This document shows, piece after piece, positions 3,052 through 50,461 of a stretch of 55,128 bases of DNA. Numbering within the stretch: the first letter of the stretch is position 1; each line of letters starts with the position of its first letter. The translations under genes and the position numbers were made by a program. Source of the stretch: Deltaproteobacteria bacterium (lineage in GTDB: Bacteria; Desulfobacterota; GWC2-55-46; DRQE01); NCBI GenBank assembly GCA_016219105.1, contig JACRCI010000115.1, forward strand, positions 1 through 55,128, given 5' to 3'. Under the pieces are notes generated by a model. It saw nothing but the letters and a program-made list of their open reading frames with translations. It was not told the origin of the DNA and did no database searches.

Positions 3052-5262
3052 TCAGGGCCGGGCGGCGCCGAGGAGTTTAATCAACTCGTTGGCCGGCACT
3101 CCGGCCTCGATGGTAACCGGCTCTTTGCAGGCGCCTTCGGCGCAAACATAGACCGCAGTCTTATTGTCAATGGATTTAAAGGCCTCGATGCCGCGCACGA
3201 TGCGCTTCAGAGAAGACAGACGAGGCCGGCTATCAGGTATATCTTTATCCTCGGGCTTCAAGACAACGGTCGTGTGCGGGATGAACTCCGCACGCAGCGC
3301 CGCGAGCACGCGGCGGGTGGAGTCCTTCGTCGAGTCCCCGGCGACCACCACGTGATAGGACGGGCCGAGCCGGAAATCAACGGCGCTCAGAAACCGGGTA
3401 TGCCCCGCGGGGTACCGGCATAGATTGCCGGAAAATATGCGCACCGCGGCTTCGGCCATCTGCGCGGGCACGCTGTCTCCGGTAATGGCCGAAAGGCGCA
3501 GACAGTTCATAACGGCGACCGAATTTCCCGAAGGGAGCGCGCCGTCCATGCTCTCCTTCTGACGGAACGGCAGCGCGCTTAAGCCTTCGGATTCGGCGGT
3601 AAAGAAAAACCCGCCTGGTCCGGCGTCCCAGAAGCGTTTTGTCATAACCCCGTTCAGCTCAAGCGCCCTCTCCAGATAGACCTCTTCAAACGTCGCCTCA
3701 TAGAGCTCGATGAGGCCGTGGATAAAAAAGGCGTAGTCGTTGAGGTTCCCTTCCACCGCGGCCTCGCCGGTCTGCCAACCGGCCTCGCCGGCCCGCCAGC
3801 AATGGAGGAGTCTGTTTTCAACAAGGAGATTTCTGAGGATAAAATCCGCCGCGCTTGAAGCCGCATCGAGGAAAAGCCCTTCCTCAAAGACAGCCCCCGC
3901 CTTTGCCAGCGAGGCTATCGTAAGCCCGTTCCAGTCGGTGAGTATCTTGTCGTCCCTGAACGGCCTTGCCCTCCCCTGCCTGTACGAAAAAAGTTTCCGC
4001 CTGATTGCCTCCAGCCTCCGTTCAAACTCTTCCGTGGACACGCCTGACTCCATCGCGAGCGAGGCCGGGGGTTTGGCGAGATAGAGGATGTTGTTGCCGC
4101 GCCTCGCCCCGCCTTCGGCCTCGCCGGCCAACCAGCCGACCTCGACGGAGAGGTTGCCCTCTCTGCGCACGTTGAACGCCTTTATTGCAAAATCGGCCAG
4201 GCCTCCGGCGGCCTCGATAATTTCTTTTTCGCCCCAGAGGTAAAAGCTGCCTTCCACGCCTTCGCTGTCGGCGTCCTCGGCCGAATAAAAACCTCCGCCG
4301 GGAGAGGTCATGTCCCTCAGCACGTACGACAGTATCTCGCGGGCGGTCCTGGCATAAAACTCCTTTCGGGTGGCCTGATACGCCTCGATATACGCATCCG
4401 CGAGGAGCGCCTGATCGTAGAGCATCTTTTCGAAATGCGGCACGCGCCACGCCCTGTCCGTGGAATAACGGTGGAAACCGAACCCCACGTGGTCGTATAT
4501 GCCGCCGAGGCGCATGGAGGTAAGGGTCGTCTCCGCCATCTTTAGCGCCGCGGAGTTCCCTGTGCGCATCCAGTAGCGCAGGAGGAACGTCACGTTGTGC
4601 GGGACAGGGAACTTCGGGGCCTGACCAAACCCGCCGTGGACCGCGTCGAAATTCTCCGTGAGTTCCCCGTACGCGGCGCTTATCGTGATAGCGCCGGGCA
4701 GCATTCCCGGCGAAAGGTCACCTGCCCCTTTCCTGAGCATGGAGGATACCTTATCGGCGGATTTAATGACGTCGCCCCTGCGCCGAATCCACAAATCCTT
4801 CATTCCGCGCAGGAGTTCGATGATGCCCGGCCTGCCGTAGAGGCTCTCCTTCGGGATGTAGGTCGCGGCGAAAAACGGCTTTTTATCCGGGGTCATAAGG
4901 ATGTTGAGCGGCCAGCCGGCGGTGCCTGTCAGCAGCTCGGAGGCCGCGACACAGATAGAGTCCACGTCCGGCCTTTCCTCCCTGTCCACCTTCACGGGGA
5001 TGAACGCCTCATTCAAGATGCCGGCGACCTCATGGTCGTTATAGGACTCCTCCTCCATCACATGGCACCAGTGGCAGGCCGAATACCCAGAGGAAATGAA
5101 TACGGGCTTGTCCTCCATCCTGGCCCTGTCGAAGGCCTCGTCGCTCCACGGGTGCCAGTCAACCGGGTTGCGGGCGTGCCGCAGGAGATAGGGGCTTTTT
5201 TCCATGATGAGCCTGTTTGTTTTTCCCCTGGTGCCGCTTCCATTCATTGCCGTTGCCTCCAT
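3052..5262 (-). CDS. thioredoxin-domain (DUF255) protein, YyaL-like
   Basis: 736-aa ORF. N-terminal [19 protein letters not shown] and SACHWCHVM motifs, followed by a long alpha-toroid-like region. Confidence 0.85.
3761..3800 (-). repeat. degenerate tandem pair related to the dispersed GGCTGGTTGG repeat (in the yyaL-like gene)
   Basis: GCCTCGCCGGTCTGCCAACCG / GCCTCGCCGGCCCGCCAGCA, encoding [12 protein letters not shown]. Confidence 0.5.
4126..4148 (-). repeat. dispersed 23-bp repeat copy (in the yyaL-like gene, sense orientation)
   Basis: Minus strand reads CCGTCGAGGTCGGCTGGTTGGCC, translated as VEVGWLA. Confidence 0.8.
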
Positions 5263-11781: not shown

Positions 11782-14211
11782 CTAAAAAATATCAACGACC
11801 GTCACTCCGTTAGGACCGGCAAGCGTATCTCCGTCTTTAAACCCTTTGACAAGCGGGTTTGCCGCAAGGTGCTCGTGTATCGCCTTCCTGAGCCTTCCGG
11901 TGCCTATGCCGTGTACCAGCTCTATCCTCTCCACGCCCATGGAGTGCGCGTCGTCAATGACCCTTGAGACCCTCCTTATAGCCTCCTCGACCCTCATGCC
12001 GATGAGGTTCACCCTCCCCGCCCCTGAAACCGGCGTGGCCGGCTGGTTGGCCGTCGAGGACGGCTGGTGGGCCGGCGTGGCCACCACCGTTACTGACCCG
12101 CCAGTCGTCCTCGACGGCCCGCCCGTGGCTCCGGCCTTTTTAAGTTTATCCCACCTGACCCATACCTTGAGGTTCCCGGCGGCCATCTCGGCGTTCCTCC
12201 TCTCCCCGTCCACCCTCAACACGACCCCTCTTATGCGGCTTCCCTCCATCTCCACCGTGTCGCCGGCCGACGGCACGTAGATTTCCTTCCGGGGACTTAG
12301 AACTAACGACACCCGCTCTTTCACCTTTCCGAGATTGCGGATGCCGTCTCCCGCATCCGGCGCCTTTGGAGCGGCCTTCATATGCTCAACCAATCCTCTT
12401 ATCTCTGAAGCGGCCTTTTCCGCTATCGCGTCAAACCTCTTCCTCGCGCTCTCCCGCAGCCCTTTTCCCTCATCCCTCAGCCTTTCAAGGGCCTTTTGCC
12501 TTTTTTCCTCCATCTTTCCGAGCCTCTCGTTAAGGGCCTCGAGCCTTTTCCGCTCCTCATCAAGCCTGCGCATACCCTCCACGTATGGACCTTCCTCGAT
12601 GTCAAGCGTCCTGCGGGCCCTCTCTATGATGTCCGGCGGTATGCCGTATGTAGAGGCTATCGAGAGGGCGAGACTCGGCCCGGGCATACCGTAGCGGAGC
12701 GTGTAAAGCGGCCTCATGGTCTTATCGTCGAACACGACCGACGCGTTCTCGTAAGCCCGGTCTACCTGCGCGTGGGCCTTCAGGAGGTTCAGGTGTGTGG
12801 TTACCACGGCGCGCGCCCCCCGCTCCTTGAGCCCTTCGAGCATCGCCAGCGCGAGAGAACCTCCCTCGGAGGGGTCCGTTCCAACGCCGATTTCGTCTAT
12901 GAGGACGAGCGTATCGGAGTCGCTCTTTTCGAGGATCTCCGCCATCCTTTTAAGGTGGGCCGAAAACGTGCTCAGGCTTTCTCCTATGTTCTGCCTGTCC
13001 CCTATGTCGGCGAATATCGCGCCGAAAACCCGCGCCTCCGAGCCCTCTAAAGCCGGTATCGGAAGGCCGGATTGGGCCATGAGCGACAATAGCCCAAGCG
13101 TCTTAAGGGCGACGGTCTTTCCTCCGGCGTTGGCGCCCGATATGACGAGTACTTTTTTATCCTCTCCCATGAGGATGTCCACCGAAACGACCCTGGCTAC
13201 GCCGTTTGCCTCCTTGAAAGCTAATATCGGATGCCTCGCCCCCCTGATATTTATACCGCCCCCCATGATGCTCACGCCCCCGGCGGCCATAAGCGCCGGT
13301 ATGACGCCTTTTATGTGCCTCTTGAAAATGGCCTTCGCCTGGAGAAAATCAAGTTCCGCCGCTATCTCACCGTCGTTTAAAAGGACATCCCTCAGACCGA
13401 GGAGTATCGAGCAAACGCCTTTAAGTATCTCTATCTCCTCTTCCTTTTCATCCCTTTTGAGTATGGCTATGCGATTATTGATATCAACCGTCTCGAACGG
13501 CTCTATGAAATACGTCGAGCCGCTCCCGGACCTGCCGTGGACTATCCCCGGAAAATGAGAGTGAGGCCCGGCCTTTACGCAAAGAACCATGCGGTCGTCC
13601 CTCAGGGTGAAGACCTCATCCTGGAGCTCGTCGCCCAGGGATTTTTTCCTTATAAGTTCCTCTATCGCCTTCCTGCAGCGCTCCTTAAGCGCCGCGGCCT
13701 CGTTCCTTATGCCCCTGAGCCTCCCGGTGGCGCCGTCCTTTATATACCCGGCCTCATCGAGTATGTCGTCGAGGGCGAGATACAGAGAACGGGGGGTGGA
13801 GAGCGAATCCGCCTTTGCGGTTATAAGCGGAAAATGTCGTCCGGCCAGCCGGGTCAGGAAGGCCTTCAGTTCCAAAAGCCCCTCAACCGTGTGCTTCACC
13901 TCAAGGAGTTCGTCCGGCTGAATGTATCCGCCGGGCTTAAGCCTCTTTAGCGGCCCTTTCAGGTCGCCTATGCCGCCAAGCGGGAGTATCCCGGCACGGC
14001 CGGCTGGATGGCCGCCGGTTTGTCCAATGGAGTGATTGTTAAGCAGGGATACGGCTTCATTCAGAGATAGGCGGGACGCATCAATGGCGGAGATATCCGC
14101 CATCGGTCTTAAAGAGCGCACAAGCTCGCGGCCCGGCGGCGTTTGCGCGAAGCCTTCGAGTTCTTTCAATACAGCCGGGTATTCAAGGGCCTCAAGGGTT
14201 GTTTCATCCAT
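11782..14211 (-). CDS. mutS2: endonuclease MutS2 (MutS ATPase plus C-terminal Smr domain)
   Basis: Walker A GANAGGKT, DEIGVGTDP motif and C-terminal Smr motif LVHGIGTGRLR. Start placed at ATG 14211 (MDETTLEALEYP). Confidence 0.9.
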   Translation of the reverse strand: MDETTLEALEYPAVLKELEGFAQTPPGRELVRSLRPMADISAIDASRLSLNEAVSLLNNHSIGQTGGHPAGRAGILPLGGIGDLKGPLKRLKPGGYIQPDELLEVKHTVEGLLELKAFLTRLAGRHFPLITAKADSLSTPRSLYLALDDILDEAGYIKDGATGRLRGIRNEAAALKERCRKAIEELIRKKSLGDELQDEVFTLRDDRMVLCVKAGPHSHFPGIVHGRSGSGSTYFIEPFETVDINNRIAILKRDEKEEEIEILKGVCSILLGLRDVLLNDGEIAAELDFLQAKAIFKRHIKGVIPALMAAGGVSIMGGGINIRGARHPILAFKEANGVARVVSVDILMGEDKKVLVISGANAGGKTVALKTLGLLSLMAQSGLPIPALEGSEARVFGAIFADIGDRQNIGESLSTFSAHLKRMAEILEKSDSDTLVLIDEIGVGTDPSEGGSLALAMLEGLKERGARAVVTTHLNLLKAHAQVDRAYENASVVFDDKTMRPLYTLRYGMPGPSLALSIASTYGIPPDIIERARRTLDIEEGPYVEGMRRLDEERKRLEALNERLGKMEEKRQKALERLRDEGKGLRESARKRFDAIAEKAASEIRGLVEHMKAAPKAPDAGDGIRNLGKVKERVSLVLSPRKEIYVPSAGDTVEMEGSRIRGVVLRVDGERRNAEMAAGNLKVWVRWDKLKKAGATGGPSRTTGGSVTVVATPAHQPSSTANQPATPVSGAGRVNLIGMRVEEAIRRVSRVIDDAHSMGVERIELVHGIGTGRLRKAIHEHLAANPLVKGFKDGDTLAGPNGVTVVDIF
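12032..12082 (+). repeat. dispersed repeat, two tandem units (in mutS2, antisense orientation)
   Basis: GGCGTGGCC-GGCTGGTTGGCC-GTCGAGGAC-GGCTGGTGGGCC-GGCGTGGCC, translated on the minus strand as ATPAHQPSSTANQPATP. Confidence 0.8.
12095..12117 (-). repeat. dispersed repeat copy, inverted relative to 12051-12073 (in mutS2)
   Basis: Minus strand reads CCGTCGAGGACGACTGGCGGGTC (20/23 identical to the neighbouring plus-strand copy), translated as PSRTTGGS. Confidence 0.7.
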
Positions 14212-14282
14212 AACGCTTACGGGGCAACGGCTTTTGAAGGCGCACAATAGGCCCCATCATTACGTCATTACCGCTGTCCATA

Positions 14283-14309
14283 TAAAAGAGCGGGGGCGGC
14301 CTACCCCCG
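14283..14309 (-). terminator. candidate intrinsic terminator after the NIF3-like gene
   Basis: Stem CGGGGG/CCCCCG with a 7-nt loop overlaps the stop codon and is followed on the minus strand by CTCTTTTATA. The U-tract is short. Confidence 0.35.
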
Positions 14310-15263
14310 TTCCTTCCTTGTAATCCTCTTGAAACCGGAGCAGTTTATCACGTCCACGCCCGCATCCAACACGTCGTCCAGGAGGAGGTTCATCCCGAGG
14401 TTGTCGCTTGCGATATGCCCGGCTATGAGGACGTTTATGTGGTGTTTCTGGGCCTCCTTACGGTGGTCTTCGCTTATGTGCATGCCCACGATGGTCCCGA
14501 CCCCGGCCCTCGACAGCCCCTCGTAGACGTTCTTGCTCCCGCCGGTGCCGCCGGTCATGTCCACGAATATCCTGCCGGCCCTGCGCCCGGAGCCGCCCGT
14601 CACGATCTTCGGCCCCGCGGTCTCATTGGCCGCAAAGCGGTATTCCGGCATATCGCGCAGCATATCGAGGGCGTCCGATACGTAAAGCGGCTTTTTTTCG
14701 TCGAATATCCCCTGCAGGAAGTTCGCAACGGCGTTGTCAGAAGGCGTGTGCACGCACATAAACGGGATGCCGAGGAGCCTTGCGGCGTCAATGGCCCTTG
14801 TGTGGTTGGCGGGAAGGAGTTTTCTCTCGACCTCGTTTATCCTCTCCTCCATGACGCCCTCGGCGAAATGTATGGGCACGCCGTATTTCAAAAGCAGGGG
14901 CGCCTGCATGCCCATGACCTCATAGAGCGCGGCCATGGCCCTGCCTTCGGGATGGTGCGAGATGATGAGGTCAATCCTGCCGCCCCGCTCGCCTATCCTG
15001 TCGGCCAGGACGACCTCCCCGACCTCCATGTCAATGCCCACAATGACCCTTTTGACCTCGGTTTCAGGGTCGCCGGAGAGTATGCGGGTGTCGGAGTACG
15101 GGTTTTTAAGGCGCTCCCTGTCGAACCATTTCCTGTCCTTTTCCCTCAAGTCGGCGAGTTCCCTGTCGGCCCTCTTCAGGTCTTGCGCGACCTCGTCCGG
15201 GCCGCGCGGGTCGAGTTCCATGCCCCTTTTTACGGCCCTCTCGTAGATGTCCTTTATCGTCAT
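14301..15263 (-). CDS. Nif3-like dinuclear metal centre protein (GTP cyclohydrolase 1 type 2 family)
   Basis: 320 aa with the ISHHP and GHxxSD motif pattern of the NIF3/YbgI family. Confidence 0.8.
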   Translation of the reverse strand: MTIKDIYERAVKRGMELDPRGPDEVAQDLKRADRELADLREKDRKWFDRERLKNPYSDTRILSGDPETEVKRVIVGIDMEVGEVVLADRIGERGGRIDLIISHHPEGRAMAALYEVMGMQAPLLLKYGVPIHFAEGVMEERINEVERKLLPANHTRAIDAARLLGIPFMCVHTPSDNAVANFLQGIFDEKKPLYVSDALDMLRDMPEYRFAANETAGPKIVTGGSGRRAGRIFVDMTGGTGGSKNVYEGLSRAGVGTIVGMHISEDHRKEAQKHHINVLIAGHIASDNLGMNLLLDDVLDAGVDVINCSGFKRITRKERG

Positions 15264-15281
15264 AACTTCACCTCCGGGGTT

Positions 15282-15764
15282 TTATCCGGCAAGCATCCCC
15301 TTGACCATATCCTGCACGGTTTTTCCGTCCGCCTTGCCTTTCAGCTTTTCCATGACGGCCTTCATCAGCCTGCCGGTATCCTTCGCGGTTACGGCGTTTA
15401 TCTCAACGGCGACGGCCTTCACGATAACGGCTATCTCATCGGGGGACATCTGGGCCGGCAGGAAACCCTTTATTATCTCAAGTTCCTTCCCCTCCTGCTC
15501 CGCGAGGTCGGCCCTTCCACCCTTGCTGAACTGCTCTATGGACTCGCGCCTCTGCTTGGCGAGCGTGGAGGCCACCTGCCGGATCTCCTCGTCCGTGAGA
15601 GGTCTTCTCAGGTCTATCTCCTTATTCTTTACCGCGGCGAGCAAAAACCTTATGGTGGACAGTCTGAGCTTTTCCCCGGCCTTCGCGGCCTTCACCATCT
15701 CGCCCGTTATCGTCTCCTTCAAGCCCGTCGTTTCCTTCAAGCCCGTCGTTTCCTTCAAGCCCAC
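15282..15764 (-). CDS. GatB/YqeY domain protein
   Basis: KLRLSTIRFLLAAVKNKEID plus a GatB_Yqey-like C-terminus. The GTG start follows an AAGGAGG RBS. The N-terminus carries a GLKETT x3 repeat. Confidence 0.8.
   Translation of the reverse strand: MGLKETTGLKETTGLKETITGEMVKAAKAGEKLRLSTIRFLLAAVKNKEIDLRRPLTDEEIRQVASTLAKQRRESIEQFSKGGRADLAEQEGKELEIIKGFLPAQMSPDEIAVIVKAVAVEINAVTAKDTGRLMKAVMEKLKGKADGKTVQDMVKGMLAG
15714..15764 (-). repeat. 18-bp tandem repeat x3 at the 5' end of the yqeY-like CDS
   Basis: TTCCTTCAAGCCCGTCGT occurs three times head to tail, encoding GLKETT-GLKETT-GLKETI directly after the start codon. Confidence 0.9.
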
Positions 15765-15803
15765 TGGTCCCCCTCCTTTAACAGTTATGCGCCCTGGGCG
15801 CCC

Positions 15804-16391
15804 CTACGCCCCCTTCTTTATCTCCGCGAGCACGGACTTGACCACGCTTTTAAGCGTCTCGAAAACCCCTGTCCCCTGTAACGCCATGCCCTCGAAGTCA
15901 GGCACGCCGTCTACGTTTAATATCTTCTTCATCTCGGCCACAGGGACGCAGTTCAGTATGTCGCGCTTATTGTACTGGATCACATAGGGTATTTTCTTGA
16001 GGCTGTAGCCGTGGTCCTCAAGGTTATCCTTCATATTGTCGAAGCTTTCGATATTGGCGTCCATCCTCTCGACCTGGGAGTCCGCCACGAACACTATGCC
16101 GTCAACCCCCTTGAGTATGAGTTTCCTGGAGGCGTCGTAGAATATCTGCCCCGGCACCGTGTAGAGGTGGAAACGCGTCTTGAAGCCCTTTATCTCGCCG
16201 AGCGCGAGCGGCAGGAAATCGAAAAAAAGCGTCCTCTCGGTCTCGGTGGCCAGCGATATCATCTTGCCCCTGGACTCGGGCCTTGTTTTCCTGTAGATGA
16301 AGTTCAGGTTTGTCGTCTTGCCGCAGAGCCCCGGCCCGTAGTAGACGATCTTGCAGTTTATCTCTCTGGCGGAGTAGTTAATGAACGACAT
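15804..16391 (-). CDS. mglA: gliding-motility / polarity Ras-like GTPase MglA
   Basis: [29 protein letters not shown] and [33 protein letters not shown] are near-identical to my recollection of the Myxococcus MglA motifs. Confidence 0.92.
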
Positions 16392-19428: not shown

Positions 19429-20073
19429 TCACTCCCCTTTCACTTCTTCAAAACCCTTCCTTATCGCCTCGATGTTGCCCTCTATTACCTTCGCGTCGAA
19501 TTTTTTGGAGTAGTTCTCCCTGAAGTTGTCAATTATGGACTGCAGTTCCACCGTCCCGGCCACCTTTGAAAGGGCGCCGAGCATGGGGGTATTGGGCAGA
19601 TGACGCCCTATCTTTTCAATTGAAATCCTGGAGGCGTCCACCGTATAAACCTTGCCTTCGCCGTCTTTAATGCCCAATTCTTTCCTCATCTCCCCAGGCG
19701 GGCGCGGGGTATTGACGATGAACACCGTATCCTTAGAGGTGCCCTCGACGAGAGGGCTCGGCCCACCAGCCGTCTTCGACGGACCGCCGGAAGAAGTTTT
19801 TCCGCCCCCGCCTTTGCCCCCGCCTTTACCAATGAGCGTCGGGTCCACTATGATGACTATACCCGGGTTCTTCACCTGGCAGTGCATACGCACCGGCTCG
19901 GTGGAGAGCCTGTTAAAAGCCCTCACCGGCGCGCCCATCCTCTCAGGACCGAACTCCGGGAACGCCTGCACGTACTTGCCTTCCCTCAGGGCCGTCTCGC
20001 CGAGAAGTTTGGCCGCGGTAACGACACCCTGCTGCGCCCTTCCATGCCATCTAACCTCGGTATATTTCTCCAT
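19429..20073 (-). CDS. porG: pyruvate:ferredoxin oxidoreductase gamma subunit, with a Gly/Lys-rich insertion
   Basis: RWHGRAQQGVVTAAKLLGE and NTPMLGAL motifs. About 25 extra residues (GKGGGKGGGGKTSSGGPSKTAGGPS) are present relative to canonical gamma subunits. Confidence 0.88.
   Translation of the reverse strand: MEKYTEVRWHGRAQQGVVTAAKLLGETALREGKYVQAFPEFGPERMGAPVRAFNRLSTEPVRMHCQVKNPGIVIIVDPTLIGKGGGKGGGGKTSSGGPSKTAGGPSPLVEGTSKDTVFIVNTPRPPGEMRKELGIKDGEGKVYTVDASRISIEKIGRHLPNTPMLGALSKVAGTVELQSIIDNFRENYSKKFDAKVIEGNIEAIRKGFEEVKGE
19760..19782 (-). repeat. dispersed repeat copy (in the porG insertion)
   Basis: Minus strand reads CCGTCGAAGACGGCTGGTGGGCC, translated as PSKTAGGP. Confidence 0.75.
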
Positions 20074-21062: not shown

Positions 21063-22807
21063 TACTCCCTCCTGCGTTCTTCTATGACCCTTCCCCCAAG
21101 CGTGCCGAGCGTCTCTTTCAAGAGCGGATCCGCGGCCTGCGGCTTGCCGGCCGAAGGGCCGGTTTGTTGAGCATTTACCCCCGCGTCTTTACTCTCCCCG
21201 CTCTTTATAATCTCAACCGTAACCCGGCCCTTGAGATAATCCCCGCACATGCCCTCAATGGCCTCTTTTTTCAGTATGAAAAAGCCGGCCCTGTCGGCAG
21301 TGACCGAAATATCAACCGCGATATCTGGGGATTTACCTTTAAGGGATATGGCCGCGGACTCAAGAGATTTATAAATGCGTTTGTCCTTTTCCTTTATGTA
21401 GTTTAAAAGCCCCTGCACAACCCCGGACATGGATGACGACCGGCACTCCGCCCCTGCTGACGGTGTTTCTTCGACGGTTAAGGGAATTGCCGTCGAGGCC
21501 GGCTGGTTGGCCGTTTTATACAACTCGGCCGAAACAGCCTTATGCTGACCGGCAGGGACAACTGGCCGGCCCGATGTCTCTTTCAACCCCTCAACCTTCG
21601 AGGCCGTCGAGGTCGTCTGGTTGGCCTGCGAGGCCCTCTGGTTGGCTGTCGAAGCCGGCGGGCGGGCCGCAGGCTTTGCGTCCTCCGGATGGCTTGCCCT
21701 TAAAAGCGCCATCTCAAACGAAAATCTGGGGGTGGAAGACTTTACTACTTCCTCATACCCCCGCGTCAAAATGCTGAAAAGCCTCTCGAGCCTCTCAAGC
21801 TCGCAGCCATCCGCAAGGGCCTTGAGACGCACGGCCTCGCTTTCCGGCAGGTCTACAAGGGACAGATCCCCCGAAACCTTTATGACCGCGATGTCCCTTA
21901 TATGCTCCAGAAGCTCGACAGTCGCCCTCTTTAAATCATAACCGAAATTATGCATCTTTTCAACCATATTCAGGCACTCTCCGGCGTCTTTTTTAAGCAC
22001 GGCGCTCGTAAGGTCATAGACGACCGACCTGTCCATCAGCCCGAGCGCGTCGCTTACGTCAGAGGCCTTAACCCCGGCGCCTCCTCCGGCGAAGCCGGCT
22101 GGTTGGCCGGCGAGGCTGGTCGGTTGGAATGACACGACCTGCTCAAGCAGGCTCTGCGCGTCCCTCAGGCTGCCCTCGGACTCCCTCGTTATAAGATACA
22201 GTGCCTCCTCCTCTATCTTGATCCCTTCCTTTTCGGCTATAAGGGAGAGATGGGCGTGTATCTTCTTTAAAGGTATGCGTCTGAAATCAAACCTCTGGCA
22301 CCGCGAGTGTATCGTGAGCGGGATTTTATGAGGCTCGGTTGTGGCGAATATGAATACGACGTGCGGCGGCGGTTCCTCGAGGGTCTTCAGGAGCGCGTTG
22401 AACGCGGAATCCGAAAGCATGTGGACTTCGTCTATGATGTAAACCTTGTAGCGGCAAAAACTCGGGGCGTATCTGACGCTCTCGCGCAGTTCCCTTATGT
22501 TGTCAACGCTGGTGTTCGAGGCGCCGTCTATCTCGAGGACGTCAACTGCCGAGCCGGCGGCGACCGAGGCGCACATCTCGCAACTGTTGCACGGGGCCGG
22601 GGTGGGGCCGGCCTTGCAATTGAGGCACTTGGCGAGTATCCTGGCCACGGTGGTCTTTCCCACCCCCCTCGGCCCCGAAAAAAGATAGGCGTGCCCTATC
22701 CTGCCGGATGCGACGGCGTTGGTAAGCGTCCTTACCACATGGTCCTGGCCAACGACCTCTTCAAAAAGGCCGGGCCTCCATTTTCTGGCTATTACCTGAT
22801 AAGACAT
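21062..22807 (-). CDS. dnaX: DNA polymerase III subunit gamma/tau
   Basis: YQVIARKWRP, GPRGVGKTT Walker A, zinc module CNSCEMC and SRCQRFDF sensor motif. The repeat-rich linker lies after domain III. Confidence 0.93.
   Translation of the reverse strand: MSYQVIARKWRPGLFEEVVGQDHVVRTLTNAVASGRIGHAYLFSGPRGVGKTTVARILAKCLNCKAGPTPAPCNSCEMCASVAAGSAVDVLEIDGASNTSVDNIRELRESVRYAPSFCRYKVYIIDEVHMLSDSAFNALLKTLEEPPPHVVFIFATTEPHKIPLTIHSRCQRFDFRRIPLKKIHAHLSLIAEKEGIKIEEEALYLITRESEGSLRDAQSLLEQVVSFQPTSLAGQPAGFAGGGAGVKASDVSDALGLMDRSVVYDLTSAVLKKDAGECLNMVEKMHNFGYDLKRATVELLEHIRDIAVIKVSGDLSLVDLPESEAVRLKALADGCELERLERLFSILTRGYEEVVKSSTPRFSFEMALLRASHPEDAKPAARPPASTANQRASQANQTTSTASKVEGLKETSGRPVVPAGQHKAVSAELYKTANQPASTAIPLTVEETPSAGAECRSSSMSGVVQGLLNYIKEKDKRIYKSLESAAISLKGKSPDIAVDISVTADRAGFFILKKEAIEGMCGDYLKGRVTVEIIKSGESKDAGVNAQQTGPSAGKPQAADPLLKETLGTLGGRVIEERRRE
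21490..21512 (+). repeat. dispersed repeat copy (dnaX linker)
   Basis: CCGTCGAGGCCGGCTGGTTGGCC, translated on the minus strand as ANQPASTA. Confidence 0.85.
21604..21668 (+). repeat. dispersed repeat, three 21-bp tandem units (dnaX linker)
   Basis: CGAGGTCGTCTGGTTGGCCTG / CGAGGCCCTCTGGTTGGCTGT / CGAAGCCGGCGGGCGGGCCGC, translated as PPASTANQRASQANQTTSTA. Confidence 0.8.
22090..22127 (+). repeat. dispersed repeat, two units (dnaX, between domains)
   Basis: CGAAGCCGGCTGGTTGGCCGG / CGAGGCTGGTCGGTTGG, translated in a different frame as SLAGQPAGFA. Confidence 0.75.
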
Positions 22808-22857: not shown

Positions 22858-22992
22858 CCGGCGATTACAGGCGCTGTTGATAGCCAGGCGCCCCCGCGGC
22901 ACATGGATAAAGACGCTTACCGCTGCTTCCTTCCGGACCTGACGGGGTTCGCATCCCTCCATTGCGCGGGACCCGGCTATCAACATCGCCGG
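22858..22992 (-). ncRNA. ffs: signal recognition particle RNA (4.5S/ffs-type)
   Basis: The minus strand contains GTCAGGTCCGGAAGGAAGCAGC (conserved domain IV motif). It is flanked by a long closing helix (GTTGATAGCC...GGCTATCAAC and CCGGCGAT...ATCGCCGG) and sits in the classic position upstream of dnaX. The ends are approximate. Confidence 0.8.
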
Positions 22993-23020
22993 CAATCCCT
23001 GCATGCCTTACAGTAAAATC

Positions 23021-23112
23021 TGGCGGAGAGAGAGGGATTCGAACCCTCGGTGCACTGTTACATGCACATATGCTTTCCAGGCATACCCCTTCGGCCACTC
23101 GGGCATCTCTCC
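23021..23112 (-). tRNA. tRNA-Ser (anticodon GGA)
   Basis: GGAGAGATGCCCGAGTGG...CTGGAAA anticodon loop, long variable arm, GGTTCGAATCC T-loop and encoded CCA. Confidence 0.9.
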
Positions 23113-23123
23113 GTGAAAAAACC

Positions 23124-23196
23124 GTGAATAGAGAATGGTGAATCGAGAATAGAAAAATGTAAAGACATTTTTCACAATTCACCATTCACTATTCAC
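23124..23196 (-). repeat. AT-rich ~35-bp imperfect hairpin built from four copies of a 14-mer (GTGAATNGNGAATN), followed by T6
   Basis: Left arm GTGAATAGAGAATGGTGAATCGAGAA pairs with right arm TTCACAATTCACCATTCACTATTCAC. There is an inner AAATGT/ACATTT stem. On the minus strand it is followed by GGTTTTTTCAC and then the tRNA 5' end. Confidence 0.7.
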
Positions 23197-23202
23197 TGTA
23201 TC

Positions 23203-23298
<96 letters not shown>

Positions 23299-24153: not shown

Positions 24154-25743
24154 TTAAAGGGTTGCTGAAAAATGACCGGCCCCCTCTTGCCGTGCGCCTC
24201 TTAAAGGCGTCTGCCTCTCAACCGCCGATTGCGCGCGCTTTGCCGACTTGACCCACCCCTCCTCGAACTGGTCGTAGGAGAGGTATATTGAAGACGACAT
24301 GGCCCTGTCAATTGAATTCCCCTCCCCTATGGCCTGAAGCACCTTCTTTACCGAGAAAATGCCGAATTCCCGGATAAGGTATTCGGTCGCGGAGAGGCTC
24401 AGCGCATAGGCCGCCCCGGCCTCGGACGGGGTAAGCCCCATGAACGAGCCTTCGATGGCCTTAAGGGAGACGCCTCTAAAAATGGCGGTCTTTAAAACAT
24501 CCCTGTAGTCGTCGCCCTTTTTGCCCTCAAAGTACTGGGCGAGCCCCTCGTTGAGCCACACCGGCGCCATGCCCATCGAAAGCCTGTGCACGACCGCGTG
24601 CGTGTACTCATGGAGGATGACGTCCTCAAGCAGTTTCGTCCTTCCCGCCACGCCTCCGGCCGGTATCTTTATGCGGCCGTCATATATCGCGCCGGCCCAC
24701 GACGGGGTCCTGGTAACGTCCCTGAACCTCTCGTCAGAATAAAGGAGCGCGGTTATTTTGTCCCCGGGATAAAAACCCATCTCGGCGCCTATCCTGTAAT
24801 AGGCCTCTTCGAGAAGCAACCCCATGAGATGTCCGGTTACGGCGTTCTCGCCGCCCTCAAACTTGACTATGAAATGGCTCCCCCTTTTCTCCCTCATGCC
24901 GGCTTCTTCCCTGCCCTGCCTCCGGATGTCGCCGAGGGCCGCCTTTATGCCGGCATCGGACGGATCTATGGCGAGCGCCTTTTCAAAATACCCGGCGGCA
25001 AGCTCGCTTAAGCCCCGTTCCTTTTCTTCCTGACCGAGCCGCGCGTATATTCCTTTAAGCAATCCGGCAGCCTCCCTGTCGGATGCGGCCATGCCTTCGA
25101 GCGTTTTTGCCGCCGCGGCAAGCTCGTTGAGCTCGATTGCCGAATAGGCCGCGCCCTTTAGAAAAGCCGGGTCGTCTTTAAGCTCAAAGGCCTCCAGGAA
25201 AAGCCCCTTTGCCCTGTGAAAGGAACGGCTTTCAAACTCCTTCCACCCGAGTGCGAAAAGGCTCTGGGCGAGGTTGTTCTTAAACACGTCGTCTTCACGG
25301 CTATCCCGCCGGCCCTCCGGCGGACGCTCCTGAAGCGCCCTTCTGAAAAGAACCGCGGCCCTCTCGTAATCCCCTCCCATGAAAGCGTTATACCCCTCTT
25401 TAGCGGCCTGAGGGCCGGCCTCAACAACGGGCACAATTAAGCGCGGTTTATCCAACGGCCCGCCAGCCGTCCCTGACGGCCCACCAGCCGTCCCTGACGG
25501 TTGAATGACCTCTACTTTCTCGCCTCCGGACCCGGAGGGCGAAACAGGCCTATGGCGAAGGTAATAATAGACCGCGGCCGCTATAACGGCTATGGAGACG
25601 ACAACGATTATCGTGAGGAAGAATTTTCCGCGGTTTTTTTCCGGGGACCGGGCGGGCCTGGACTTCATCGTGGGGTTAGTGCCGCACCGCGGGCAATGCT
25701 CGGCCCAGTCTGAAATGCCCGCCCCGCAATTTTTGCAACGCAT
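24154..25743 (-). CDS. membrane-anchored Zn-ribbon / TPR / peptidase MA-like (HExxH) protein
   Basis: N-terminal CKNCG..CPRCG zinc ribbon, one TM helix, TPR-like repeats, and ILHEYTHAVVH plus WLNEGLAQYFE motifs of MA-clan zincins. Confidence 0.65.
   Translation of the reverse strand: MRCKNCGAGISDWAEHCPRCGTNPTMKSRPARSPEKNRGKFFLTIIVVVSIAVIAAAVYYYLRHRPVSPSGSGGEKVEVIQPSGTAGGPSGTAGGPLDKPRLIVPVVEAGPQAAKEGYNAFMGGDYERAAVLFRRALQERPPEGRRDSREDDVFKNNLAQSLFALGWKEFESRSFHRAKGLFLEAFELKDDPAFLKGAAYSAIELNELAAAAKTLEGMAASDREAAGLLKGIYARLGQEEKERGLSELAAGYFEKALAIDPSDAGIKAALGDIRRQGREEAGMREKRGSHFIVKFEGGENAVTGHLMGLLLEEAYYRIGAEMGFYPGDKITALLYSDERFRDVTRTPSWAGAIYDGRIKIPAGGVAGRTKLLEDVILHEYTHAVVHRLSMGMAPVWLNEGLAQYFEGKKGDDYRDVLKTAIFRGVSLKAIEGSFMGLTPSEAGAAYALSLSATEYLIREFGIFSVKKVLQAIGEGNSIDRAMSSSIYLSYDQFEEGWVKSAKRAQSAVERQTPLRGARQEGAGHFSATL
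25457..25500 (-). repeat. dispersed repeat, two 21-bp tandem units (in the Zn-ribbon peptidase gene)
   Basis: Plus strand reads GGCCCGCCAGCCGTCCCTGAC / GGCCCACCAGCCGTCCCTGACGG, translated as SGTAGGPSGTAGGP. Confidence 0.8.
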
Positions 25744-26456: not shown

Positions 26457-26459
26457 CTT

Positions 26460-26640
26460 TTACCTCGCAATGCTTTTGTCTTCCGCCGGGGACGGAGTGC
26501 CGGCCGTCGTGGACGGCTGGTTGGCCGCCGGGGACGGCAGCGTAATCCTCGCCACCTCTCCGACCTTTCCGACCGGGCCAACGCTCTGGCCGTTTAGCTT
26601 AAGCTCCACGGCGCCGGCGTTCCCTATGGTCAAAAAAAAA
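26460..26640 (-). pseudogene. rodZ: C-terminal (DUF4115-like) segment of RodZ in a shifted frame
   Basis: The translation FFLTIGNAGAVELKLNGQSVGPVGK continues the beta-rich RodZ C-domain that starts in the upstream ORF (LDIYAKGTTWIKAEIDG...ISWKAGEVFF). The two frames join only if the T9 run were T10. Confidence 0.6.
26504..26526 (+). repeat. dispersed repeat copy (rodZ 3' part)
   Basis: CCGTCGTGGACGGCTGGTTGGCC flanked by GCCGGGGACGG on both sides, translated as AANQPSTT. Confidence 0.8.
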
Positions 26641-27394
26641 CCTCGCCGGCCTTCCAGCTTATGCGGTCGCCCTTGCGCAATAAAACCTCGGTACGCTCTT
26701 TCCCGTCTATCTCGGCCTTTATCCATGTGGTGCCCTTTGCGTATATATCGAGCGAGAGTTTTTTTGCCGTCTTTTCCCCGGGCAGGCCCGGCAAGGTCTT
26801 TTCAAGGACCTTGCCGTCAAGGACGGCTGATTGGCCGGAGAGGGTTCTGTCAGCGGTCTTAAGAGGGGCATTGGAAGATGTGTCTTTACCTGTCTCTGTC
26901 CTCGGTTTTGCCGATTCGGACGGTATGGCCGGGGTAAGCCCGGCCGGCGAAACCGTTTCACGGGCCGTCCTCCCGGAAATGATGAAATACAGGGCTATTA
27001 TGAAAATCCCGGACAGGACAAGCGACAGGACTATCGCCTTATTGGGCCTCGTCCACATGGCCGGCTCATCCGCCTTCTCTATCAAAAGGGAGGACGGTTT
27101 TTTATCCCTTTCTTTTTCCTTATCCTTATCCCTATCCTTATCCTTATCCTTCTTCGCCTCTTCTTTAAGATACGCCTCGAACCTCAAGAGCGCGTCGTTC
27201 TCGTCCAGCCCGAGATACCCGCAATACGACCTTATAAAACCCCTCACGTAGGTAGGGTGGGGAAGCCGGCCATACGCGTCTTTCTCCAGCGCCTCGATGG
27301 TCTTCATCGAGAGTTTCAGCACGCCGCTTATCTCTTCGATGGACACCCCCCTGAGTTCGCGTTCCCTGCGCAGGTATTCGCCTGGATTCTCCAT
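26630..27394 (-). CDS. rodZ: RodZ-like cytoskeleton protein (HTH plus TM plus start of the periplasmic domain), ORF as read
   Basis: GEYLRRERELRGVSIEEISGVLKLSMKTIEALE HTH_25 motif, YVRGFIRSY motif and one TM helix. It ends at a TGA created inside a T9 run. Confidence 0.8.
   Translation of the reverse strand: MENPGEYLRRERELRGVSIEEISGVLKLSMKTIEALEKDAYGRLPHPTYVRGFIRSYCGYLGLDENDALLRFEAYLKEEAKKDKDKDRDKDKEKERDKKPSSLLIEKADEPAMWTRPNKAIVLSLVLSGIFIIALYFIISGRTARETVSPAGLTPAIPSESAKPRTETGKDTSSNAPLKTADRTLSGQSAVLDGKVLEKTLPGLPGEKTAKKLSLDIYAKGTTWIKAEIDGKERTEVLLRKGDRISWKAGEVFF
26814..26836 (+). repeat. dispersed repeat copy, diverged (rodZ periplasmic linker)
   Basis: CCGTCAAGGACGGCTGATTGGCC, translated as GQSAVLDG. 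Confidence 0.65.
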
Positions 27395-34088: not shown

Positions 34089-35750
<1,662 letters not shown>

Positions 35751-35773
35751 TTAAAGTTTGAAATACGGAATGC

Positions 35774-36061
35774 CTACCCCTCTATCACGCCGAGTATGTC
35801 CTCTTCCCTCATTATGAGGTGCTCCTCTCCCTCTATCTTGACCTCAGAGCCGGCGTATTTGGAGAATAGGACCTTATCGCCCTTTTTGATGTCTACCGGG
35901 ACTAATACGCCTTTGTCGTCGCGCTTGCCGGGGCCCACGGCAATGACCTTGCCCTCGGCCGACGCCTCCTTGGCCGAGTCCGGGATGATAATCCCGCCCT
36001 TGGTCTTTTCCTCCTCGAGTCTCTTTACGATTACACGGTCATGCAACGGTCTGATCTTCAT
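35774..36061 (-). CDS. groS: co-chaperonin GroES
   Basis: [32 protein letters not shown]. Confidence 0.96.
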
Positions 36062-36201
36062 GCGAATTACCCTCCTTGGAATTTTAAATACTATTGCCTT
36101 ATGATTTTCAGAAACGACTCCCCCTGTGCGACGACGCCGGATGCCTTATTTGAGAGGTACGGCGAAATTTCCGGGAGGTATTCCAGTAAATCGTATACAT
36201 G

Positions 36202-36230
36202 AATATATGTACCTTGTCTGGTTTTGTCAA
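36202..36230 (-). promoter_or_regulatory. candidate sigma-70 promoter of groES-groEL
   Basis: Minus strand reads TTGACA-N17-TATATT, about 140 nt upstream of the groES ATG and immediately downstream of CIRCE. Confidence 0.45.
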
Positions 36231-36238
36231 GGGGTTTT

Positions 36239-36265
36239 TTAGCACTCTATGCCGGAGAGTGCTAA
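36239..36265. promoter_or_regulatory. CIRCE operator (HrcA binding site)
   Basis: Perfect TTAGCACTC-N9-GAGTGCTAA inverted repeat upstream of groES. Confidence 0.92.
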
Positions 36266-36273
36266 AAGCTTGC

Positions 36274-36300
36274 TTGCAAAACGGCATATTCTGGTATAAA
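36274..36300 (+). promoter_or_regulatory. candidate extended -10 promoter for the divergent hypothetical gene
   Basis: TTGCAA-N15-TATAAA with a TG extension (TGGTATAAA), about 55 nt upstream of ATG 36354. Confidence 0.4.
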
Positions 36301-36353
36301 ATATAACTAATACAACTGCAGTTAACGAAAATGCGGGGAAAAAGGGCAAAAAA

Positions 36354-36932
36354 ATGTTTACCGAAACGTCCCCTCTTGAATATTTCAGCGCACTCGTTTC
36401 AAAGGCCATGAAAGACCAGGGCATCGCGGCAAGCGATACGGCCGGGTTCTATATCTCAAGCCTGCTCGCGAGTTACGTCGCGAGCAGAAAACTTTCGGAC
36501 GAGGCGTTTGCCGCAAGGTTCTTGAAAGCGCTCGGGGCCGAGAGAGAGGTAAAAAATGTCCTCTTGAAGGAAATAGGAGACTCCTCGCTCTTTATGACCG
36601 GCTTTTTCCACGAGAGCTTCAAACGCAAGGTCGTGGACATAGACTACTACGTGGGCATGGGGATCATGTCATACGCAAGCCTTGCCGATTCCCTTCATGA
36701 AAAAAGCCGCCGCGCCACTGCCCTTGCCTCCATATACATGGAGCTTTCGGATAAGTTCGTAGAGTTCATGGACGTATTGAACGAGATAAGCGAGAGGAGC
36801 GGGATAAAGACCGCCCTCGACACGTTAAGGCTCTACGAAAGGTGGCTGAAGACCGGCAGCCCCCGCACAAAGGCCATACTGAAGGAACTCGGCATAGACC
36901 CGGTGAGGGTGCCGGTAAAACCGATGCAGTGA
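36354..36932 (+). CDS. hypothetical protein, 192 aa, predicted all-alpha
   Basis: Long ORF divergent from groES with a purine-rich stretch (GGGGAAAAAGGG) upstream. No family was recognised from the sequence. Confidence 0.5.
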   Translation: MFTETSPLEYFSALVSKAMKDQGIAASDTAGFYISSLLASYVASRKLSDEAFAARFLKALGAEREVKNVLLKEIGDSSLFMTGFFHESFKRKVVDIDYYVGMGIMSYASLADSLHEKSRRATALASIYMELSDKFVEFMDVLNEISERSGIKTALDTLRLYERWLKTGSPRTKAILKELGIDPVRVPVKPMQ

Positions 36933-37004
36933 CCTCCCCCCGCGCCGCAAAAACCTTGTCGGCAGACATGGCGCTGTGGTATGGTAACTTATGGAGGTGA
37001 TGAT

Positions 37005-37214
37005 ATGAGAATTGTTATTATTACCCCGGCCGAAGAAGGCGGTTTCGTCGCCGAGTGTCCTTCATTGCCGGGCTGTATGTCTGAGGGCGAAACACGCGAG
37101 GCGACGATCGAGAACATCAAGGAAGCAATGAGGGGATATATCGCCGCGCTCGAACAGGACGGGTTGCCAGTCCCCGGCGAAGTAGAATCCGAGGTGCTCG
37201 AACTCGCCGTATGA
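37005..37214 (+). CDS. hicB: HicB-family antitoxin (UPF0150)
   Basis: MRIVIITPAEEGGFVAECPSLPGCMSEGETREATIENIKEA is typical of small HicB proteins. GGAGGTG RBS lies upstream of ATG 37005, and the stop overlaps the hicA start (ATGA). Confidence 0.75.
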   Translation: MRIVIITPAEEGGFVAECPSLPGCMSEGETREATIENIKEAMRGYIAALEQDGLPVPGEVESEVLELAV

Positions 37215-49765: not shown

Positions 49766-50461
49766 ATGGCTGGAAAAATCCCCGCTCTGTATCCCATAAT
49801 AGACGCGTCCCTGGTAAAGCGCTCCACCCCCGGTGCGCTTGAGATGGCCGCGAGGGACGTCCTTGCAGGCCTCGCCGGCCAACCCGCCGGCATAATACAG
49901 CTCAGGGCAAAGGAAACGGGTTCAGCCGAGTTCCTTGGTCTGGCAAGGATTTTGAGGAGAATCTGCCGGAACGCGACATTCATAGTGAACGACAGGGTGG
50001 ACGTGGCGCTCCTCGCCGGCGCGGACGGGGTGCACCTCGGCCAGGAGGACATACCCGCTCAGGCGGCGAGGAGACTCCTCGGCAGGGGAAAAATAATCGG
50101 GCTTTCCACCCATAACATAGAGGAGGCCCGTGAGGCCGAAAAACTCGCCCGCAAAGGCTTGGTTGACTACATATCGTTCGGCCCGGTGTTCCGCACCGGG
50201 ACAAAAAAAGACGCCCGGCCGCCTGTCGGGATAGCCGGGCTTAAAAAGGCGCGTAAAATCGTAACCTTCCCGCTCGTAGCTATAGGCGGCATAAACCGGG
50301 ATAACATGCCGTGGGCAATCGGGGCAGGGGCTGACTCGGTCGCCATTATATCCGCGATACTTGGCGCAAAGGATATCCGCTCGGAGACAAAGACCCTTGT
50401 CGAAAGATTGTCGGGATTATCCCCTCACCCCGTGGGCGCCGCGTCGCGCCCTTCCCGGTAA
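49766..50461 (+). CDS. thiE: thiamine-phosphate synthase
   Basis: LYPIID..., IQLRAKE, NDRVDVAL..GADGVHLGQED and GGI motifs. ATG 49766 follows AGGAAAG; the longer ORF-track N-terminus is antisense to the radical SAM gene. Confidence 0.9.
   Translation: MAGKIPALYPIIDASLVKRSTPGALEMAARDVLAGLAGQPAGIIQLRAKETGSAEFLGLARILRRICRNATFIVNDRVDVALLAGADGVHLGQEDIPAQAARRLLGRGKIIGLSTHNIEEAREAEKLARKGLVDYISFGPVFRTGTKKDARPPVGIAGLKKARKIVTFPLVAIGGINRDNMPWAIGAGADSVAIISAILGAKDIRSETKTLVERLSGLSPHPVGAASRPSR

Follow-up and report, generated by a model that had tools for sequence, protein, structure and literature searches.

The stretch of DNA analysed here (the window) comprises 55,128 nucleotides of contig JACRCI010000115.1 from a Deltaproteobacteria bacterium (assembly GCA_016219105.1), and its minus strand carries the gene mutS2 (11782-14247), within whose coding sequence an inverted pair of short repeats is found. 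The open reading frame (ORF) was assigned from its Pfam domains (MutS_V, MSSS/SH3-like and a C-terminal Smr domain) and from its homologues, which carry the annotation endonuclease MutS2; a database protein of 809 amino acids is 100% identical to its product and places the start near 14211. The pair lies in the linker between the MSSS and Smr domains and is built from copies of a dispersed 21-nt unit, of which at least 24 were aligned (partial units included) at at least 13 loci of the window. The first part of the unit is a 13-nt palindrome, CCGKC-NNN-GMCGG, whose stem has 5 bp and whose loop has 3 nt; a G-rich tail of 8 nt, CTGGTKGG, comes next.

Direct reading of the sequence gives CCGTCGAGGACGGCTGGTGGGCC for the left arm (12051-12073, plus strand) and CCGTCGAGGACGACTGGCGGGTC for the reverse complement of the right arm (12095-12117). 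An earlier note on this DNA had described an inverted pair at this place, and the arms do agree at 20 of 23 positions across a spacer of 21 nt (12074-12094). The inverted symmetry reaches, more weakly, arms of 48 nt (12024-12071 and 12097-12144; complementarity 71%), the whole imperfect inverted repeat occupying 12024-12144. The note had counted two copies and a fragment, whereas the cluster is made up of about five units, starting at 12030, 12051, 12072 (partial), 12097 and 12118, with a total of roughly 105 nt. The tandem unit that it had placed at 12037-12050 is present, but its true extent is the full 21-nt unit 12030-12050 on the plus strand, which has a G-type palindrome (CCGGCGTGGCCGG followed by CTGGTTGG), is 81% identical to 12051-12071 and encodes NQPATP on the gene strand. 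The left arm holds a unit with a T-type palindrome (CCGTCGAGGACGG followed by CTGGTGGG; peptide AHQPSSTA), and a third, truncated plus-strand unit (CCGGCGTGGCC, 12072-12082), located by repeat search and alignment, opens the spacer. The right arm holds a unit of the opposite orientation (CCGTCGAGGACGA followed by CTGGCGGG, minus strand; peptide PSRTTGG), and is prolonged by a probable degenerate minus-strand unit (12118-12136, AGATGG) that takes part in the outer stem of the predicted folds. An 8-nt palindrome at 12077-12084 (GTGGCCAC) was also considered as the centre of the main inverted repeat and was ruled out by a symmetry check by hand.

The MutS2 peptide reads ...GATGGPSRTTGGSVTVVATPAHQPSSTANQPATP... 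and the linker ...KKAGATGGPSRTTGGSVTVVATPAHQPSSTANQPATPVSGAGR..., as had been claimed, with PSRTTGG contributed by one orientation and AHQPSSTA/NQPATP by the other. The suspected hairpin potential was borne out by folding of 12020-12150, strong structure being predicted both for single-stranded DNA (-39.3 kcal/mol, z = -4.5, with 1 of 200 shuffles equally good) and for the mRNA strand (-72.7 kcal/mol, z = -5.0, with none of 200 equally good).

At 48 residues, the linker between the MSSS and Smr domains is 16 longer than the median of 32 for 119 homologues. Six of these 119 have an equal or longer linker of unrelated sequence, and the linker of the window is thus inside the natural range. In the nearest relatives a hand-counted stretch of the linker is shorter (25 against 41 residues) and lacks copies of the unit. 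The outcome that the note had named as a refutation, the same linker in close relatives whose genomes have no other copies of the motif, did not appear, and many further copies are present in the window. A second site in mutS2 (13991-14011, plus strand) consists of the unit CCGGCACGGCCGGCTGGATGG in a 12-residue loop insertion (HSIGQTGGHPAGRAG) that is found in none of the 119 homologues; the N-terminal loop after helix 40-58 has 15 residues here and 3 in all 119 others. In an AlphaFold2 model calculated from a 20-sequence alignment (mean predicted local distance difference test score, pLDDT, 75.9), residues 695-730 of the linker and 67-71 of the N-terminal insertion have a pLDDT below 50 and appear as coil without secondary structure. 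Both sites are predicted by this model to be disordered loops, the linker joining the SH3-like domain to the Smr nuclease domain. A possible third, degenerate copy was noticed at 13265-13289, where the sequence is 80% complementary to a region with units in the RodZ tail (26522-26546) and which is close to a small MAAGGVSIM insertion missing from other MutS2 proteins (alignment columns 346-360); decayed copies of greater age may be frequent.

The consensus of the unit is CCGTCGAGGnCGG-CTGGTTGG, and its 21-nt period was recovered by Tandem Repeats Finder (TRF) at four loci. In a scan with a position-weight matrix (PWM), no fewer than 20 units scored higher than, or close to, the best of 20 shuffles, and the 23-mer with at most three mismatches gave 11 matches in the window and none in each of 100 dinucleotide-preserving shuffles. 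For the palindrome pattern alone, CCGNCNNNGNCGG, 25 occurrences compare with an expectation of 3.6. The unit alignment shows conservation of stem and tail beside freely varying loops. At stem position 4/10, nine units have G-C, nine have T-A and six have no pair, a covariation above that of 500 out of 500 shuffles. Loci in unrelated genes, 17 kb from each other, share blocks of 32-33 nt made up of palindrome, tail and palindrome with 91-94% identity (94% between 4117-4148 and 21604-21635, for example). The unit has been copied between unrelated genes at the DNA level. Head-to-tail tandem arrays are the rule for the family and inverted pairs the exception: the mutS2 cluster is the sole inverted arrangement among the 13 loci, the remaining 12 being single units or head-to-tail arrays. 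Neighbouring units can be nearly identical (25459 and 25480 differ by 1 nt; the palindromes at 47792 and 47813 are the same), and a partial palindrome closes almost every array.

All 13 loci are inside reading frames. As the coding density is about 92%, the lack of intergenic loci is not significant by itself (P ~0.35 for 0 of 13), but genes are clearly open to this repeat, in contrast to the classical repetitive extragenic palindromes (REPs). In a DsbH-like (DUF255) gene, compared with its syntenic orthologue, units at 3750-3791 (minus strand) account for seven inserted residues, AGEAGWQ, and a unit with a partial unit at 4107-4148 (minus strand) for eight, VGWLAGEA. The POR gamma-subunit gene has one unit (19762-19782, minus strand; PSKTAGG) within a 17-residue insertion. 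DnaX carries units on the plus strand at 21490, 21549 (weak), 21604, 21625 and 21646 (21490-21666; ANQPASTA, ANQTTSTA and similar), in the linker that leads from domain III to the C-terminal region, and also two tandem units at 22086-22127 (plus strand, QPTSLAGQPAGFAG), a 14-residue (42-nt) insertion absent from all nine aligned homologues. Two near-identical tandem units (PSGTAGGPSGTAGG, 25459-25500, minus strand) were identified by 23-mer matches and TRF in a gene recognised by Pfam as TPR/Peptidase_MA. Repeat search placed three units at 26483-26545 (plus strand, PSPAANQPSTTAGTPSPA), where they form the C-terminal tail of the RodZ_C-like frame, and a 23-mer match placed one at 26814-26834 (plus strand, GQSAVLDG) in the RodZ linker. 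Two tandem units (47792-47833, plus strand; 23-mer match and TRF) lie in an SLT/LysM gene, in its low-complexity N-terminal part, and a probable relic consisting of a tail and the palindrome CCGGCGAGGCC was found by repeat search in an unannotated 110-amino-acid ORF (49868-49891, minus strand). Around the SLT/LysM site (47703-47914) there are two copies of an 80-nt segment, 86% identical and spaced by 132 nt; this larger tandem duplication carried 21-nt units along, and units also lie between its two copies.

Four frames are in use: PS[RKG]T[TA]GG at three loci, ANQP[AS][ST]TA or AHQPSSTA at five, GQPAGFAG, GQSAVLDG or GHPAGRAG at three, and VEVGWLA or AGEAGWQ at two. With four of the six possible frames of one DNA unit translated, the repeat is one of DNA and not of peptide. 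Both consensus types are free of stops in all six frames and, since 21 is divisible by three, a copy adds seven residues without destroying the gene. The two arginine-rich frames, RRGRLVG and PTSRPRR, are used at none of the 13 loci, for which a post hoc calculation assuming equal use of frames gives (4/6)^13 = 0.005; on that figure their absence is the pattern expected from selection after random insertion. The frames found give small, polar or Gly/Pro-rich peptides, and the copies are placed in loops, linkers and tails.

The closest homologues of MutS2 and DnaX among 5.8 billion proteins have 55-63% identity. Two relatives that are syntenic with the window, though more distant, serve for comparison. 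One, L125 (GCA_016219165.1), has the order dnaX-ybaB-recR-POR-...-mutS2-dnaG-rpoD-...-dsbH, and the loci L132, L133 and L126 have PNP-pfkB-TPR-rodZ-GAF-...-dnaX-...-mutS2; for one of these two relatives the protein identity to the window is 62-75%. The gaps of the relatives in the alignments coincide exactly with units in DnaX, POR gamma, the DsbH-like protein and MutS2, as insertions of 7 to 17 residues. Relative to them DnaX is longer by 14 residues, that is 42 nt or exactly two units, POR gamma by 17 and the DsbH-like protein by 8 and 7, and the DnaX linker exceeds that of L125 by 35 residues. The copies are insertions relative to the syntenic relatives. In L125, L132 and L133 there were no PWM matches, palindromes occurred at background counts and no analogous dispersed repeat family was seen. 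At the sites 3771, 4128 and 13991 the orthologous DNA of relatives (L125, L133) resembles the 13-nt palindrome, examples being TCC GAC GAG GCG GCC in dsbH of L125 and ACC GGC CGG CAC GGG in mutS2 of L133. Such palindrome-like orthologous sites could reflect target preference or microhomology-seeded copying, and a resemblance that existed beforehand fits recombination or slippage as well as transposition.

In our judgement the inverted pair in mutS2 is probably a cluster of a lineage-specific, non-autonomous repeat that spreads in the manner of REPs or of the Rickettsia palindromic elements (RPEs), with the hairpin as an incidental result. A trans-acting activity would recognise the hairpin and the tail on single-stranded DNA and produce new copies, and HUH transposases of the RAYT or IS200/IS605 type, as with REPs, may serve as a model for it; alternatively, copies would arise by microhomology-seeded copying or recombination at palindrome-like sites. 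Slippage would then enlarge the tandem arrays, and purifying selection would remove copies that are out of frame, arginine-rich or structurally disruptive, leaving those at tolerated in-frame positions. In mutS2, copies of both orientations would have piled up in the linker, predicted to be disordered, between the SH3-like and Smr domains. Somewhat in favour of the latter route are several orthologous sites that resemble the palindrome and a window without a transposase. The head-to-head insertion of two copies that the note had proposed holds as far as the arms are copies of a dispersed repeat in opposite orientations, but it is indistinguishable from a local inverted duplication (template switch) of adjoining units. 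The unit 12097 (minus) is nearest in sequence to its neighbour 12051 (plus), with 2 differences in 21, fewer than against any other copy. The pair may therefore stem from two independent insertions of opposite orientation or from one local fold-back duplication. [quoted passage not shown]

Several observations weigh against a spreading repeat of this kind. Palindrome-like sequence is already present in the orthologue at site A of the DsbH-like gene (CCGACGAGGCGG) and in mutS2 of L133 (CCGGCACGG). The edges of the arrays show no consistent target motif or target-site duplication (TSD). Pfam detected no transposase, RAYT or IS200/IS605 domain among the scanned ORFs of the 55-kb window, six of which have no Pfam match at all. 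The covariation is based on one stem position and may reflect two subfamilies that go back to a single event. About nine loci are on the plus strand and five to six on the minus strand, with no clear replication-strand bias. In addition, the family is carried by one genome fragment only, and the scans of public collections gave no second carrier. Among genome contigs, CCGKCNNNGMCGGCTGGTKGGCCG matched at least 89 loci with one match each and no second PWM match among those listed; this pattern is too permissive for G+C-rich genomes, in which chance matches dominate, and says nothing on absence. The stricter CCGTCNNGGACGGCTGGTKGGCCG matched 35 loci among metagenome contigs, each with a single match and none with several copies, in a collection to which the window itself does not belong. 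Viral contigs gave two single matches, and only two weak matches came from a protein search in which the peptides that the repeat encodes were strung together synthetically.

One further candidate, the Bacteroidota-like contig L127 (Logan ERR14760506), was rejected as a member of the family, its units being without the palindrome and confined to one locus rather than dispersed. It has five tandem, tail-like 21-nt units (CGGTCGAAGAGGGGTGGTTGG, 1085-1189) in a 76-amino-acid ORF beside a gene for an extracytoplasmic function (ECF) sigma factor; the best-scoring of them, at 1148 (CGGTCGTGAAGGGCTGGTTGG), has 17 of 21 positions in common with the unit CCGTCGTGGACGGCTGGTTGG at 26504 of the window.

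The alternative that survives best does without transposition: ectopic gene conversion or template switching, seeded by palindrome-like microhomologies, would have been followed by slippage to give a 21-nt minisatellite, and the mutS2 pair would be a fold-back copy. The resemblance of orthologous sites to the palindrome at DsbH sites A and B and at the N-terminal site of mutS2, the lack of a transposase in the window and of TSDs, the head-to-tail arrays with near-identical neighbours, the partial palindrome at nearly every array end and the closeness of 12097 (minus) to 12051 (plus) are all in its favour. REPs of the CGTC type have likewise been reported without a dedicated transposase (PMC3733652). 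However, the 8-nt tail and the 32-33-nt blocks are common to loci tens of kilobases apart that have no flanking homology, imperfect homology of 10-13 nt would be a very inefficient seed, and palindrome-like seeds occur in the relatives at background level only. On balance this explanation appears unlikely, and the spreading REP-like or RPE-like repeat is preferred.

If the unit were a functional DNA motif under selection, be it a recombination hotspot like Chi, a sequence for DNA uptake or one bound by a protein of nucleoid or gyrase type, the inverted pair would be a paired site. DNA-uptake sequences (DUS, or uptake signal sequences, USS) and Chi are short oriented motifs abundant in genes that arise by substitution without added residues, Chi being strand-skewed; inverted pairs are also known for DUS/USS, which are overrepresented in genes for genome maintenance. 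The present unit shares with them the short motif inside genes and the inverted pair; its stem and tail are conserved beside variable loops, and the consensus tail contains the Escherichia coli Chi octamer GCTGGTGG. This octamer occurs seven times in the window where 1.4 are expected, three times in units (12063-12070, 19763-19770 and 25481-25488) and otherwise at 211, 17799, 46874 and 50501. The exact octamer is nevertheless found in only 3 of about 24 units, most of which carry GCTGGTTG, GCTGGCGG or GCTGGATG; its occurrences divide into three on the plus and four on the minus strand of what GC skew indicates to be a single replichore, without strand bias; and the copies are insertions that change length, whereas uptake sequences come about mainly by substitution. 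Moreover, the octamer is the Chi of E. coli and may not be that of the present lineage. Its presence in the tail is probably a coincidence, and a selected motif is an improbable explanation.

The hairpin might also be a device of mutS2 itself, acting in the mRNA through ribosome pausing or message stabilisation, or in the DNA as a cruciform that tunes expression or makes deletion variants. The strong predicted structure and its location precisely at a domain boundary would suit such a role. The hairpin is, however, built from a repeat present in at least eight other genes and inverted at only one of 13 loci, and none of the 119 MutS2 homologues, whose linkers are unrelated in sequence, needs it. 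The scan gave no terminator or promoter consensus near it, and at the Rfam gathering threshold no family matched it, the window matches being a signal recognition particle (SRP) RNA and two tRNA-Ser only. A loop of 21-25 nt, moreover, makes cruciform extrusion unfavourable. A device thus seems highly improbable; no function for the hairpin is indicated, and the 23-bp structure is most simply seen as an incidental, tolerated by-product of oppositely oriented copies.

Convergence of Pro/Ser/Thr/Gly-rich linkers under codon bias, or an artefact of assembly, can be given almost no credence, for although the peptides have typical linker composition and all copies are in variable regions, one nucleotide string read in four frames and on both strands is beyond what peptide selection can yield (the frame analysis effectively refutes convergence), shuffles gave no matches, each insertion leaves a long conserved ORF in frame, unlike random misassembly, and 1,503 nt of the window (35544-37046) recur at 100% identity in an independent Logan assembly (contig SRR12113407_1258960), though in a repeat-free part.

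Because of this identity, reads of the organism are present in the public run SRR12113407. The matching segment falls within a region of lower G+C content (~50% at 36-40 kb) that holds a 192-amino-acid ORF without a Pfam match. The rodZ-like gene (HTH_25; 26457-27394, minus strand) has a stop directly after a run of nine T (26633-26641, GAG GTT TTT TTT TGA), and the RodZ_C-like C-terminal part carries on in the -1 frame. An identical split at a T9 run is found in L132 (5203-5211), and as the split is conserved in both lineages it looks like programmed -1 frameshifting or transcriptional slippage and not like a sequencing error. The SRP RNA (22879-22978) and the two tRNA-Ser genes (gga and cga) are between dnaX and the next gene (22879-23298, minus strand). 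Almost certainly spurious are the ORFs 22865-23185 (minus strand) and 14415-15881 (plus strand), which overlap with these RNAs or with ORFs of the minus strand, 14301-15263 and 15282-15764 (by synteny NIF3-like/YqeY).

If the density of the window, about one locus per 4 kb, holds genome-wide, a genome of a few megabases would contain several hundred and perhaps about 1000 units. This would be among the clearest cases in a free-living organism of selfish DNA inside protein-coding genes, so far best known from the RPEs of Rickettsia and from a minority of REPs. The repeat system offers a natural experiment on which protein positions and frames tolerate 7-residue insertions, a source of rapid evolution of linkers and loops in core machinery (MutS2, DnaX/tau, PFOR and RodZ) and a test case for the spread of short palindromic repeats without GTAG tags. 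It is also a warning for annotation, as low-complexity PST/G-rich segments in proteins from metagenome-assembled genomes can be insertions of DNA-level repeats, and such repeats are able to fragment short-k-mer assemblies.

Among known repeat systems, MITEs have IS-related terminal inverted repeats, TSDs and lengths of about 50-500 bp, and the present unit differs in its 21 nt and in array edges that show neither terminal inverted repeats nor TSDs. The mitochondria of yeast and Allomyces carry GC clusters and double-hairpin elements. Mitochondrial genes of Nematomorpha contain coding palindromes with perfect arms of up to 284 bp (PMC6649704). These resemble the mutS2 locus in having inverted repeats or G+C-rich hairpins in coding sequence with both arms translated; they belong, however, to organelle genomes, have far longer perfect arms or a different structure, and lack the 21-nt periodicity. 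REPINs are extragenic, and in them an inverted doublet of REPs is the replicating unit, associated with a single-copy RAYT gene (Bertels & Rainey 2011, PMC3116915, PMC3337134). The mutS2 locus has the same layout, two inverted short palindromic repeats with a short spacer from which a long hairpin can form, but the inverted doublet is found at one of 13 loci only and inside a coding sequence, and Pfam showed no RAYT in the window.

In the general sense of the term, a short (20-40 nt) imperfect palindrome in dispersed copies with stem variants, the unit agrees with REPs, with its 21 nt, its 13-nt palindrome, at least 24 units and G-C/T-A covariation at one stem position, although REPs are mainly extragenic and the present loci are all in reading frames. 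The literature comes closest to it in the survey of palindromic repeat superfamilies tagged with GTAG or CGTC, in which the tags are unpaired terminal motifs (Di Nocera, De Gregorio & Rocco 2013, PMC3733652). According to this survey some REPs are intragenic, adding 20-30 residues as dimers or groups, sometimes twice per ORF and often in genes of DNA synthesis and repair; Opitutus terrae has intragenic REPs, and GTAG-1 of Thauera sp. MZ1T, with 5-bp stems, is clustered, encodes 43-82 amino acids and was found through tandem-repeat searches. CGTC families, among which Rickettsia RPE-4/6 are included, are described there as without a dedicated transposase. The known families are for the most part extragenic; their dimers are inverted, head-head or tail-tail, and tandem (head-to-tail) ones are negligible (PMC3733652), whereas here all copies seen are intragenic and exact 21-nt tandem arrays predominate. 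The unit works in the same way as these REPs, as a short G+C-rich stem-loop with a short tail in many copies and with subfamilies that differ by complementary stem changes, but it departs from them in the defining features. GTAG REPs have an unpaired terminal GTAG, which neither the unit consensus CCGTCGAGGnCGGCTGGTTGG nor its complement contains. They also go together with a RAYT gene, for an IS200/IS605-like tyrosine transposase, that the repeats flank; Pfam recognised no transposase domain in the ORFs scanned in the 55-kb window. In CGTC REPs the tag is terminal and free, whereas here the CGTC of T-type units occupies stem positions 2-5, paired with GACG, and G-type units have CGGC instead. 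Moreover, CGTC REPs have a stem of 8-9 bp starting with A-T pairs, a loop of 4-5 nt and a short CCA-like tail; the present stem is 5 bp, all G/C apart from position 4, with a loop of 3 nt and a tail of 8 nt, CTGGTKGG, whose complement begins with CCA or CCC.

RPEs are palindromic selfish DNA lying in frame within unrelated housekeeping genes, where they add a peptide segment at places that the fold and function of the protein allow (Ogata et al. 2000, 2002, as summarised in PMC10969869 and PMC3733652). The unit resembles RPE-1 in being inserted in frame at permissive sites with the ORFs left intact, here by 7, 8, 12, 14 or 17 residues. In the same summaries RPE-1 is about 100-150 bp long, encodes one conserved peptide in one frame and belongs to obligate intracellular alphaproteobacteria, whereas the present unit has 21 nt and four frames in use, is arranged in tandem arrays and comes from a metagenomic, Thermodesulfobacteriota-like ('Deltaproteobacteria') lineage.

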